Under the pieces are notes generated by a model, which was given only the letters and a program-made list of their open reading frames with translations, was not told where the DNA came from and made no database searches. DNA of 64,000 nucleotides, taken from the NCBI GenBank assembly GCA_963708605.1, contig CAVPTG010000004.1, positions 250,900 to 314,899 on the forward strand. Direction: 5' to 3'. Made by a program: the position numbers and the translations under genes. Origin of the DNA: Candidatus Dormiibacterota bacterium (GTDB lineage: Bacteria; Chloroflexota; Dormibacteria; Aeolococcales; Aeolococcaceae). This document shows positions 36,097 to 56,733 of this stretch, piece by piece (the first letter of the stretch is position 1; the number at the start of each line of letters is the position of its first letter).

Positions 36097-36103
36097 AGGG
36101 AGT

Positions 36104-36477
36104 GCAAGCCGGCCGATAAGCCGGGTTCTGTCCTTGCCCGCACGGCAGACAAGGGACGGTCATCCATCTGGGACGCCGGTTACCCGGCGCCTCGAGCGGC
36201 CCACCTGAGACACGGGGAGCGAGCAGCTCCTGAGCGCCGAGGCGCTCGGCCTCTGTTTGGCCTTGCTCCGGGCGGGGTTTACCTGGCCGGCCGGTCACCC
36301 GGCCGCCGGTGGGCTCTTACCCCACCATTTCACCGTTGCCCCGGACGGGTCCGGGGCTGTGTTATTTCTGTGGCACTCTCCTTCGGGTCACCCCGACTGG
36401 GCGTTACCCAGCGCCCTGCTCTGCGGAGCCCGGACTTTCCTCGGACGCGTATGTCCGCGACCGTCTGGCCGGCTTGC
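36104..36477 (-). ncRNA. rnpB: RNase P RNA, bacterial type A
   Basis: The minus strand carries GAGGAAAGUCCGGGC, AGUGCCACAGAAA, GGUAAACCCC..GAGCAA and ACAGAACCCGGCUUA. P1 is formed by GCAAGCCGGCC...GGCCGGCUUGC. The -10 TAGACT is at 36489-36484. Confidence 0.97.
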
Positions 36478-54093: not shown

Positions 54094-55138
54094 ATGCTCG
54101 CGGCGTATGCGTCGGCGGTTGGCGGCGACGACCCACTCGCCAACCTGACGGTCGGCGACCTGCCGGCACCCGACCCGCAGCCCGGCTGGGCGCGCGTCAG
54201 GATGCGCGCCGCGTCGCTCAACCACCACGACATCTGGACGCTGCGCGGGGTGTCGTCGGCACCCGTGACCCCGCCGCAGATCCTCGGCTGCGACGCCGCC
54301 GGCGAGGTCAACTCCTACGGAGGCGAGCCACCCCCCGGTGCTCCGCCGGTGGGCGCCCGGGTCGTCGTCTATCCGATCATCACGTGCGGCCGCTGTCCGG
54401 CCTGCCTCACCGACGAGCCACTCGGATGCCGGTACTTCCGCATGCTCAGCGAGGCGCCGCTCGCCGGGGCGCTCGCCGAGTACGTCGAGATCCCGGCCGC
54501 GAACCTCGTGCCGCTGCCGGCCCAGGTGGCCTTCGCCGACGCTGCATGCCTGCCCACCGCCTACCTGACCGCATATCGCGCCCTCTTCATCCGGGCCGGG
54601 CTCCGGCCCGGGATGAACGTCCTCGTGCAGGGTGCGACGGGGGGTGTGGCGACGGCGTGCATCCTGCTCGGCCGCCTCGCCGGCCTCACCGTGTATGCGA
54701 CCTCGCGCGACGAGGCGAAGCGCGCGTTCGCAGTCGACCTCGGCGCCGAAGCCGCCTTCCCGGTCGAGCGCGACACCACGCGCGCGGTCATCGGCGCGAC
54801 TGGCGGCCTGGGCGTGGACGCCGTGATCGACACCGTCGGCGAGCCGACCTGGGACCTGAGCCTCCGGTCGGTGCGACCGGGCGGTGTCGTGGTCGTCCCG
54901 GGCGCGACCGGTGGACCCGAATCCCCCGGCGCAGCTCAACCGGATCTTCTTCCGCAGCGTCACCGTTGCCGGTACCACCATGGGAACGCGAGGGGAGTTG
55001 CGCCGGCTCGTGGATCTCACGGCGACGGGGGCGCTGCGGCCGCTCATCGGCTCGACGCACCCGCTCCACGACGCGGCGATCGCGTTCGCCGAGATGGTCG
55101 ATGGCGACCTGCGAGGCAAGATCGTCCTCGAGGCGTGA
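54094..55138 (+). CDS. Zn-binding alcohol dehydrogenase/quinone oxidoreductase (MDR family; one apparent +1 frameshift at about 54917)
   Basis: ASLNHHD, ILGCDAAG, CGRCPAC, GATGGV, VIDTVG. PNPPAQLNRIFFRS...GTTMGT...GKIVL follows after removing one C next to GAATC (54919-54923). Confidence 0.85.
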
Positions 55139-55190
55139 GCCGTCGGCGGCACCAGGTGGCCTGGTGAGCACGTCGATTTTGAGGATTGCG

Positions 55191-55219
55191 TAGACGCGAT
55201 CGACAAGCGGTGTTACGGT
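55191..55219 (+). promoter_or_regulatory. Sigma70-type promoter upstream of the structured element
   Basis: -35 TAGACG (55191-55196), 17-nt spacer, extended -10 TG-T-TACGGT (55211-55219). Confidence 0.6.
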
Positions 55220-55224
55220 TGCGC

Positions 55225-55440
55225 AGCTTCGGCGGTCCATGCAGACCGCGGCGCACAGGGCCTCGTCCAGAAGGTGCAGTGGCGAGGCCCTGTCCGTGTC
55301 TTCAGGAATTGGTGGAGACGCGTGATCCCGCCGTCCGGGATTGGAGCCGCAACTGCCTCCGAAAGGGCGCCAGACCTCTCAATGACAACCAACATGTTGT
55401 GGCATACTGGGCCGGCGAACCCAGCATCTTGCGGTTTTGC
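55225..55440 (+). ncRNA. Unassigned structured RNA candidate (independent ncRNA or ftsA leader)
   Basis: At least 7 stems, several with G-U pairs that work only on the plus strand; a promoter directly upstream; no convincing ORF; no family recognised. Confidence 0.5.
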
Positions 55441-55495
55441 GCCTGAAAACCCTTGAACGGCGCACCCGCGACGGCTACACTCGGAGACCTAGACA

Positions 55496-56733
55496 GTAAC
55501 TCGTCCTCGCCGCGTCTTCGCACTCGATCTCGGAACGACCAAAGTCTGCTGCGCTGTCGCAGATCTTGAGAGCACCGGTCTCCGAAGTCTTGGGCGTCGG
55601 CATGGTCGCGTCGCGGGGGGTGCGCAAAGGAGCGGTCGTCGAGATCGACCGGGCCGCGGAGGCCGTCGCCGAGGCCGTGGACATGGCCGAGCAGATGTCG
55701 GGCGTTCCCATCGACTCCGCCGTGGTTGGGATCGCGGGGGGTCACATCACCTCCCAGAACAGCCGGGGCGTCGTCGCCGTGGAAGCCGGTCATCGCGAGG
55801 TCCGCGACCAGGACGTGCACCGGGCCATCGACGCGGCGCGCGCGGTGAGCGTGCCGTCCGAGCGGCGCATCGTGCACGTCCTGCCCCAGCAGTTCACGAT
55901 CGACGGGCAGGAGGGCGTGCGTGACGCCATCGGCATGGCGGGCAATCGAACTCGAGGTCGATGCGCACATCATCACCGGCGCCAACACCGCGATCCAGAA
56001 CGTCGTCAAGGTGGTGCACAAGGCCGGGCTCAGCGTCGACGACATGGTGCTGCAGGTGCTCGCGTCCGCTGAAGCGGTGGTCACCGAGGACGAGATCGAG
56101 CGCGGCGTCGTGGTCGTCGATGTCGGCGGTGGGACCAGCGATATCGCGGTGTTTGCGCGCGGCAGCATCGTGCACACGAGCGTCATCCCGGTCGGTGGCA
56201 ATCACGTGACCGCGGACCTCGCGGTCGGGCTGCGCTGCGACCTCGAGACCGCTGAAACCGTCAAGCGAAACTTCGGTCACTGCCTCCAGTTGACGCTCCC
56301 CGCCGACGCGGAGGTGACCCTGACGCCGATGGGCTATGACGAGCCGGTCGGTGTGCCACAACGCTATCTCGCCGAGATCATCGGTCCGCGCGCTCGGGAG
56401 ATGGCTTCGTTGATCGCCGCGGAGGTCGAGCGCGCCGGCCCGCTCGGGATGTTCCCGGGTGGCATCGTGATCACCGGTGGCGGCGCGCTGCTTCGCGGAT
56501 TTGCCGAGGTGGTGCAGCAGCAGACCAACCTTCCCGCGCGGGTCGCTGCACCGCAGGGATTGCACGGCATGAACGACGAGATCCGCGGCCCGAGCCACGC
56601 CACGGTGGTCGGGCTGCTGCGCTGGGGAGCCCGGAGCAACCTCGGCCGCAAGCCGTCCCGCTCCAACGGAAAGAGCTCGGACGGCCCCGCCGCCGGGATC
56701 AAACTCTCGAGGTGGTTTCGTGACCTCTTTTGA
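55496..56733 (+). CDS. ftsA: Cell division protein FtsA (start reads GTA, probably GTG; two apparent +1 frameshifts at about 55586 and 55950)
   Basis: [60 protein letters not shown]. Length 1238 = 3n+2. Confidence 0.9.

Follow-up and report, generated by a model that had tools for sequence, protein, structure and literature searches.

Several described bacterial systems resemble the locus studied here in part. The 6C RNA of the Actinobacteria (RF01066) is short, is transcribed from its own promoter, and consists of two adjacent GC-rich hairpins, both of which carry C-rich loops; its function resides in the conserved loop sequence and not in the stems, and reports connect it to phenotypes in cell division or morphology. 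Other small RNAs are tied directly to division genes in Escherichia coli, including the prophage-encoded DicF, which pairs with the ribosome-binding site of ftsZ, and StfZ, which is antisense to the ftsA-ftsZ junction. At the DNA level, multi-promoter regions precede ftsZ or ftsAZ in E. coli, Bacillus subtilis, Streptomyces, and Mycobacterium. In Listeria, terminated riboswitch transcripts that are released from 5′ leaders act in trans. Peat, permafrost, and desert soils harbor abundant Dormibacteria (candidate phylum AD3), no member of which has, to our knowledge, been cultured. Full-text literature searches found no RNA or division-gene regulator from Dormibacteria, and nothing on the two-module element described below.

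Two conserved blocks upstream of ftsA

The source genome is a MAG of 3.0 Mb in 19 contigs, about 80% complete, in which we analyzed a stretch of 64,000 nucleotides, referred to as the window (C4:250900-314899; G+C content of 68.6%, or ~69%). Positions given without a contig are window positions. Near the end of the dcw cluster, a gap extends from the end of the upstream gene at 55138 to ftsA. A sequence-only reading had proposed that this gap holds a promoter followed by a single multi-stem RNA of ~215 nt. The stems and promoter elements that it listed were all recovered at their positions in a sequence check. The conserved RNA is limited to the first ~80 nt, corresponding to stems 1 and 2. 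For a 221-nt stretch, the plus strand folds at -101.4 kcal/mol (z = -2.8) and the minus strand at -101.2 kcal/mol (z = -3.3); fold energy alone does not discriminate between the strands at the ftsA gap.

When queried with BLAST against 40 relatives, the stretch was present in 24/24 genomes of the same genus, at 75 to 89% identity, and absent from 16 genomes of the sister family. All genomes compared are MAGs, several of which contain frameshifts, the source genome included. The genus alignment divides into three zones: a 5′ block with identities of 0.76 to 0.95, an indel-rich middle (0.41 to 0.56), and a 3′ block (0.88 to 1.0). For scale, codon positions 1, 2, and 3 of ftsA in the same genomes have identities of 0.98, 0.99, and 0.70. 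Because comparison with about 100 related genomes separates the 5′ and 3′ blocks, the interval before ftsA is, on comparative grounds, described as two independent conserved modules and not as one large multi-stem RNA. The layout is as follows.

55191 to ~55306, plus strand: module 1, a promoter and a two-hairpin RNA
55298 to 55342, plus strand: stems 3 and 4, GTCTTCA/TGGAGAC at 55298-55319 and GATCCCG/CGGGATT at 55324-55342
55343 to 55383: unconserved spacer with indels, including a 12-nt deletion in four genus members
55384 to 55495: module 2, near-invariant, of fixed length, and attached to ftsA

Two open reading frames (ORFs) in the interval were rejected as proteins. The 20-codon ORF that starts at the ATG at 55394 is interrupted by a TGA in one relative (L014) and by a 1-nt deletion in another (L021), and the 60-codon ORF at 55274-55456 runs across the indel-rich spacer.

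Promoter, structure, and distribution of the module 1 RNA

The elements of module 1 are listed below.

55191 to 55219, plus strand: module 1 promoter, with the -35 element TAGACG at 55191-55196, a 17-nt spacer, and the extended -10 element TGtTACGGT at 55211-55219
55223 to 55306, plus strand: core of the module 1 RNA (match of covariance model R1), in which a short 5′ tail leads into hairpin 1, a linker joins hairpins 1 and 2, and a tail rich in U and G closes the core
55232 to 55249, plus strand: hairpin 1, GCGGTC/GACCGC, with a variable loop (tetra- to hexaloop)
55255 to 55293, plus strand: hairpin 2, in which 55255-55267 pairs with 55281-55293 (13 bp) around a 13-nt loop at 55268-55280
55273 to 55279, plus strand: loop heptamer GGTGCAG, present in 59/59 family sequences

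In 24/24 genus relatives, alignment shows that conservation begins exactly at the -35 element TAGACG. The sequence upstream is unrelated, and the genes upstream of module 1 vary from genome to genome. The extended -10 element consists of TACGGT (55214-55219) preceded by TG (55211-55212). Across the family, the layout comprises TTTACA, TTGCGC, or TGGACA, followed after about 17 nt by GGTGCTACGGT. A strict consensus promoter scan did not call the module 1 promoter. The promoter that had been claimed before the stems is nonetheless borne out by the conservation of its -35 and extended -10 elements across the family, and the module 1 transcript is predicted to start near 55225.

To describe the RNA, model R1 was built with 84 positions and 23 pairs. 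In 59 family sequences aligned to R1, 94.4% of the cells pair, and 11 pairs changed on both sides, in 51 cells. None of 500 shuffles reached the observed value on any of five covariation measures, and slid-register controls were only 38 to 53% paired. The 59-sequence alignment was fitted to a covariance model and thereby favors structure; an alignment of the genus made independently with MAFFT leads to the same result. Hairpin 1 is 96.9% paired over the 59 sequences, with one pair that is C-G in 36 and U-A in 20 of them. In hairpin 2, the claimed 11-bp stem ACAGGGCCTCG/CGAGGCCCTGT (55255-55293) is present and extends to 13 bp. Within the genus, 100% of its cells are paired; five pairs vary with pairing kept, passing through U-G or G-U intermediates and including two double changes. 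Across the family, the stem is 98.6% paired (59 sequences), with changes on both sides at 7 of the 13 pairs. Run on module 1, the covariation analysis thus finds stems 1 and 2 conserved family-wide with covariation.

Reverse-strand matches of the model reach 30 bits versus 107 bits on the plus strand, the latter being the R1 score at the source locus. The proposal that the G-U pairs work only on the plus strand holds for hairpin 2, whose intermediates are valid on that strand only; the energy of the whole stretch does not tell the strands apart. By these comparative measures, module 1 holds a plus-strand structured RNA.

The loop of hairpin 2 measures 13 nt in 54/59 sequences and has the form N4-5 followed by AGGUGCAGU, with four to five freely varying bases preceding GGUGCAG. 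All invariant unpaired bases of module 1 sit in this one apical loop, and the GGUGCAG sequence is presumed to be a recognition surface. An SRP-like apical fold was also considered for hairpin 2 and is ruled out by the free variation in the 5′ half of the loop.

The tail after hairpin 2 is enriched in U for such GC-rich genomes. It holds 4.3 U in 9 nt outside the genus, with at least four U in 31/40 sequences, and is weakly U-rich within the genus (3.2 U in 9 nt). A terminator scan of the window called no canonical terminator after hairpin 2. Hairpin 2 and its U-enriched tail are compatible with a weak intrinsic terminator, for which the stem and loop are long. Farther downstream, stems 3 and 4 show double changes at 5/7 and 6/7 pairs within the genus, where 80% and 67% of their cells are paired, respectively. 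The alignment reveals no counterpart in other genera of the family, so the two claimed hairpins stand as features of this genus alone. In this genus, they may extend the RNA in the 3′ direction or form its end. The stretch from hairpin 2 to module 2, with stems 3 and 4 included, has a lower identity (0.41 to 0.56) than the third codon positions of ftsA (0.70), and the length of the spacer ranges from about 20 to over 250 nt.

R1 yielded one full-length match per genome in 99 of the 161 genomes of the order, namely in all 42 genomes of the genus and in 57 others of the same family, and none in the sister family. R2, a model rebuilt from the family diversity, matched 102/161 genomes of the order with one copy each, in one family only. 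The E-values of both models are rough, with a shortened calibration. In a 401-genome sample of the phylum, matches occurred in 14/18 family members and in 0/383 genomes outside the family. Module 1 is carried by 18 genera; genera g6, g19, and g20 and the sister family are without it. Two genomes with no module 1 match also have no ftsA and are probably incomplete there. Public contigs with the same element belong to Candidatus Dormibacterota/Dormibacteria MAGs from peat, permafrost, and soil; the Stordalen Mire and SPRUCE sites are sources of related genomes.

The sole Rfam 15 match at the gathering threshold in the whole window is RNase P (36101-36476). At E≤10, the region 55000-55700 gave two chance-level 15-bit matches, with no riboswitch among them. 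The claimed absence of a known-family match is therefore confirmed at either threshold. SRP RNA (RF00169) was rejected: the SRP RNA of this genome lies at C7:102555-102654 (78 bits), and none was found in the region. For 6S RNA (RF00013), no match was found in the region or the genome with a model that is itself insensitive, firing in 5/14 control genomes. The 6S form, a rod of ~180 nt with a closing stem, a central bubble, and a terminal stem, is also absent, as module 1 consists of 84 nt with two side-by-side hairpins.

Among the systems known to us, 6C RNA is the nearest architectural analogue, without homology. Both are short RNAs of high-GC hosts with their own promoter, two adjacent GC-rich hairpins, and a conserved loop sequence. 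However, the C-rich loop that 6C RNA carries in each hairpin is not found in module 1, where the conserved loop is confined to hairpin 2 and reads GGUGCAG. In addition, the host belongs to the Dormibacteria, Rfam gives no match even at E≤10, and for module 1 a connection with division is drawn only from the gene neighborhood.

The ftsA-proximal block

Module 2 has a different character. In addition to its high identity, 20/20 columns are invariant within the genus over CGAACCCAGCATCTTGCGGT, and the length from Box A to the ftsA start is nearly constant among 46 family sequences. Its elements are the following.

55389 to 55402: Box A, CCAACATGTTGTGG, invariant in the genus; family consensus CCAACATCTTGTGG
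55421 to 55434: Box B, CCAGCATCTTGCGG, a 14-bp direct repeat of Box A located exactly 32 bp downstream
55453 to 55481, plus strand: putative proximal ftsA promoter, with the -35 element TTGAAC at 55453-55458, a 17-nt spacer, and the -10 element TACACT at 55476-55481
55483 to 55486 and 55496 to 55498, plus strand: GGAG and the ftsA start codon, which is GTA here and GTG in all relatives

The boxes are spaced by 32 bp, equal to three helical turns, in nearly all genera, and their distance to the ftsA start is constant across genera. They are followed by a T-tract, an A-tract, and then the promoter. The -10 sequence TA(T/C)ACT hardly varies within the family and is always found 11 to 14 nt before the GTG, and the -35 element keeps TTnnnn at 17 to 18 nt. 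In several genera the Shine-Dalgarno sequence lacks conservation, in keeping with a very short leader arising from the proximal promoter. The sequence-only reading had assigned ftsA a -10 element and a Shine-Dalgarno sequence of its own. The former, TACACT, is upheld by its conservation throughout the family, but the latter, GGAG, is not conserved outside some genera.

That reading had also placed a 95-nt multibranch RNA domain over the spacer and module 2, closed by GGAGCCGCAA/TTGCGGTTTT. Within the genus, the proposed closing stem is 76% paired, largely by G-U pairs, and shows no double change; four genus members carry a deletion of its 5′ strand, and the stem is absent outside the genus. 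Inside the domain, ACAAC/GTTGT never varies and is thus uninformative, CTGGG/CCCAG changes on its 5′ side without compensation, and the GAAA-capped hairpin is placed in the unconserved middle. RNAalifold finds no family consensus structure for the 3′ block (consensus of -0.29 kcal/mol, no shared structure), and averaged pair probabilities over 46 module 2 sequences reach at most 0.43. The domain was consequently dropped. Two further stems in module 2 were tried and rejected: GCAAACC/GGUUUYGC is 91% paired and has several G-U-compatible changes, with covariation that is not significant, and GGUUUU/AAAACC pairs no better than a slid register.

Hexamers separated by 17 to 18 bp at a fixed distance from the start, together with repeats in helical register, are what a sigma-70 promoter with operator sites would present, and both are found here. 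Module 2 is most likely the proximal promoter/operator DNA of ftsA, and the paired boxes point to two sites for a putative ftsA regulator. A minor RNA-level role might exist beside the promoter function. DnaA-box, LexA-box, NrdR-box, and sigma-54 readings of the boxes were considered, and none fits; we know of no regulator site that matches the 14-bp motif CCARCATCTTGYGG. The Box A/B pair is unique in the genome, with only two other exact matches of the motif, both inside coding sequence. As the motif is not enriched elsewhere in the genome, no regulon can be deduced from it. Similar to the multi-promoter regions that precede ftsZ in model bacteria, several promoter-like elements lie within a few hundred bases, represented in module 2 by the -35/-10 pair, a second -10-like element, and repeats at helical-turn spacing.

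The second -10-like element, TGgCATACT (55400-55408), follows Box A, has an extended -10 form, and is conserved in genera g1 and g5 and not in g11. It may provide a third start point, with a 5′ end near 55415 at the foot of a GCGAACC/GGTTTTGC inverted repeat.

Upstream of ftsA in the sister family f2 (L210 to L213), the palindrome CCACAACATGATGTGG is followed by TTGTG-18-TACACT, about 150 to 210 nt from the gene, with a ~170-nt leader that has no similarity to module 1. Judged by its sequence, this palindrome with its promoter is a related operator-plus-promoter arrangement at the level of the order.

Position relative to ftsA and possible roles of module 1

Throughout the genus and in 31/40 sampled family loci, ftsA lies on the same strand as module 1, 190 to 400 nt past the start of the R1 match. 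Across all loci, the distance between the two ranges from about 100 nt to 1.8 kb, and several loci depart from the common arrangement. In genera g9 and g17 (four loci: L056, L057, L058, and L062), an ORF of ~200 aa on the opposite strand fills the gap. In G091, module 1 and ftsA are 1.8 kb apart, separated by an opposite-strand gene whose 555-aa product is a glycine-rich protein with GGxGGxG repeats, and in G092, ftsA is 1.0 kb from module 1. A repeat-like insert of ~700 nt stands between the two in genus g10 (L073 and L086). In one species, represented by G042, the whole of module 1 is inverted ~200 nt upstream of ftsA and would be transcribed away from it. This copy keeps a -35 element TGGACA and the extended -10 element GGTGGGATCAT; it scores only 18.6 bits with R1, yet it aligns over its full length with the genus relatives, promoter included. 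Finally, genus g6 has kept module 2 and has no detectable module 1, either at a distance of up to 700 nt from ftsA or in the rest of the genome.

Since module 1 stays intact after separation or inversion, it probably need not belong to the ftsA transcript. This favors an autonomous small RNA gene over an obligate leader of ftsA. The fixed, contiguous, same-strand 5′ UTR position of a cis leader is not found in G042, g9, g17, G091, or G092. The suggestion that the element could be a free-standing RNA gains support from these separated and inverted copies. The broader suggestion of a novel noncoding RNA or an ftsA-ftsZ leader is retained as a structured plus-strand RNA without an Rfam match, with its extent reduced to stems 1 and 2 and its role as an obligate leader disfavored.

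Three side observations concern the separating sequences. The ORF in g9 and g17 (MAADYHFVTRWR...WWPSVYLDV...) stops directly at the base of hairpin 2, which could serve as a two-way terminator there, and judged by its sequence alone, the product of the ORF looks like an SRPBCC-type protein. The gene inserted in G091 is located at about 565390-567050 of G091:C16 (L076 and L205). The g10 insert gives similar translated strings on both strands and may be a small mobile or repetitive element.

The explanation that fits these observations best, and that we hold to be somewhat probable, is that module 1 is a small noncoding RNA gene and module 2 separate promoter DNA of ftsA. The sigma-70-type promoter at 55191-55219 would then start a transcript near 55225 that folds into two adjacent GC-rich hairpins, 55232-55249 and 55255-55293. 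The transcript would end at or shortly after hairpin 2 or, in this genus, perhaps after the two extra hairpins, near 55345, which would give an RNA of about 80 to 120 nt. We infer that the GGUGCAG in the 13-nt loop would be the contact surface for an RNA-binding protein or a complementary RNA. The pathway served would probably be cell division, because module 1 stayed beside ftsA in almost all genomes. Module 2 would act as DNA, offering two 14-bp sites to a putative regulator, followed by the -35 element, the -10 element, and the start codon at fixed distances.

Two features expected of a trans-acting small RNA are present, namely a promoter that is conserved with the RNA and moves along with the inverted copy, and a secondary structure supported by covariation. 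Another such feature, conserved complementarity to a target, was not found in the start regions of ftsA and ftsZ, the only targets covered: predicted loop pairing ranges from -6.5 to -14.7 kcal/mol versus a background mean of -12.7 kcal/mol, no better than random genomic windows. In the alignments, the GGUGCAG loop likewise shows no pairing that is maintained across genera, be it with either box, with the 5′ tail, or with codons 7 to 10 of ftsA. DicF and StfZ resemble module 1 as small RNAs tied to the ftsA-ftsZ division genes, a functional analogy only; module 1 differs in being sense-oriented and upstream of ftsA, with no above-background pairing to the ftsA or ftsZ start. A more specific version of the small RNA explanation is put forward as tentative: the ~85-nt RNA might act in trans through the Shine-Dalgarno-like AGGUGCAG loop of a terminator hairpin, pairing with an mRNA or capturing a protein, and might thereby set FtsA/FtsZ levels. 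If true, this would be the first regulatory RNA described for the Dormibacteria, a new RNA family, and a dedicated cell-division riboregulator of an uncultured lineage.

The strongest competing explanation combines a distal promoter with a long, structured 5′ leader. Transcription would proceed from 55225 into ftsA-ftsZ, and the two hairpins at the 5′ end would shield the mRNA or bind a regulator that adjusts division-gene expression in cis; a separate, second input would come from the proximal promoter, comparable to the multi-promoter regions preceding ftsZ in model bacteria. This is a possible account that we nevertheless doubt, as it fits the majority arrangement and not the separated or inverted ones. 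Same-strand placement at 190 to 400 nt in most loci speaks for a leader, as do the compensatory changes in stems 3 and 4, an RNA-level constraint past hairpin 2 in this genus, and the lack of a canonical terminator after hairpin 2 in the window. However, module 1 remains intact despite an intervening opposite-strand gene, a distance of 1 to 1.8 kb, or inversion, the spacer is unconstrained (about 20 to over 250 nt), and ftsA keeps its own conserved -10 element 11 to 14 nt from the start codon. An RNA born in a leader that also acts alone would reconcile the usual position upstream of ftsA with the retention of module 1 after separation. The Listeria leader-derived RNAs offer an analogy only; module 1 differs in showing no recognizable aptamer and only a possible terminator.

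Alternatively, hairpins 1 and 2 could act as a riboswitch or attenuator that senses a ligand or protein, with hairpin 2 and its U-rich tail as a conditional terminator gating read-through into ftsA. The GC-rich hairpin followed by a U-enriched tail, the invariant unpaired nucleotides, and the position upstream of an essential operon would suit such a device. In contrast, there is no multi-helix junction or conserved internal loop, the invariant unpaired bases being confined to one apical loop, and no alternative antiterminator pairing was noticed in a non-systematic reading of the alignments. Inversion and intervening genes are incompatible with cis control, and no Rfam riboswitch matches even at E≤10, which makes this alternative improbable. 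Least probable of all, and very unlikely in our view, is that the whole interval is a complex promoter/operator whose inverted repeats are protein-binding sites. In favor of this reading, such repeats are common operators and module 2 fits it well. Against it, the arms of hairpin 2 change and stay complementary through G-T intermediates that are noncomplementary in duplex DNA and on the other strand, and its invariant part is the loop and not the arms.

As a single-copy element with strong covariation and an invariant loop beside an essential division gene, module 1 provides a tangible entry point into the gene regulation of this lineage, and the near-invariant module 2 with its two helically phased repeats points to a putative ftsA regulator. 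General principles are unchanged, given that lineage-specific small RNAs and multi-promoter division-gene regions are already familiar.

In this assembly, ftsA itself is disrupted (55496 to ~56735), with the GTA start and a single extra A near 55585 and near 55949 that cause two frameshifts. The FtsA of relatives is intact, 411 aa long, and at least 96% identical over the first 300 residues. Because an A is involved in each of these three differences, errors in base calling or assembly seem a likelier cause than a pseudogene. At least three other MAGs of the genus also have in-frame stops in ftsA.
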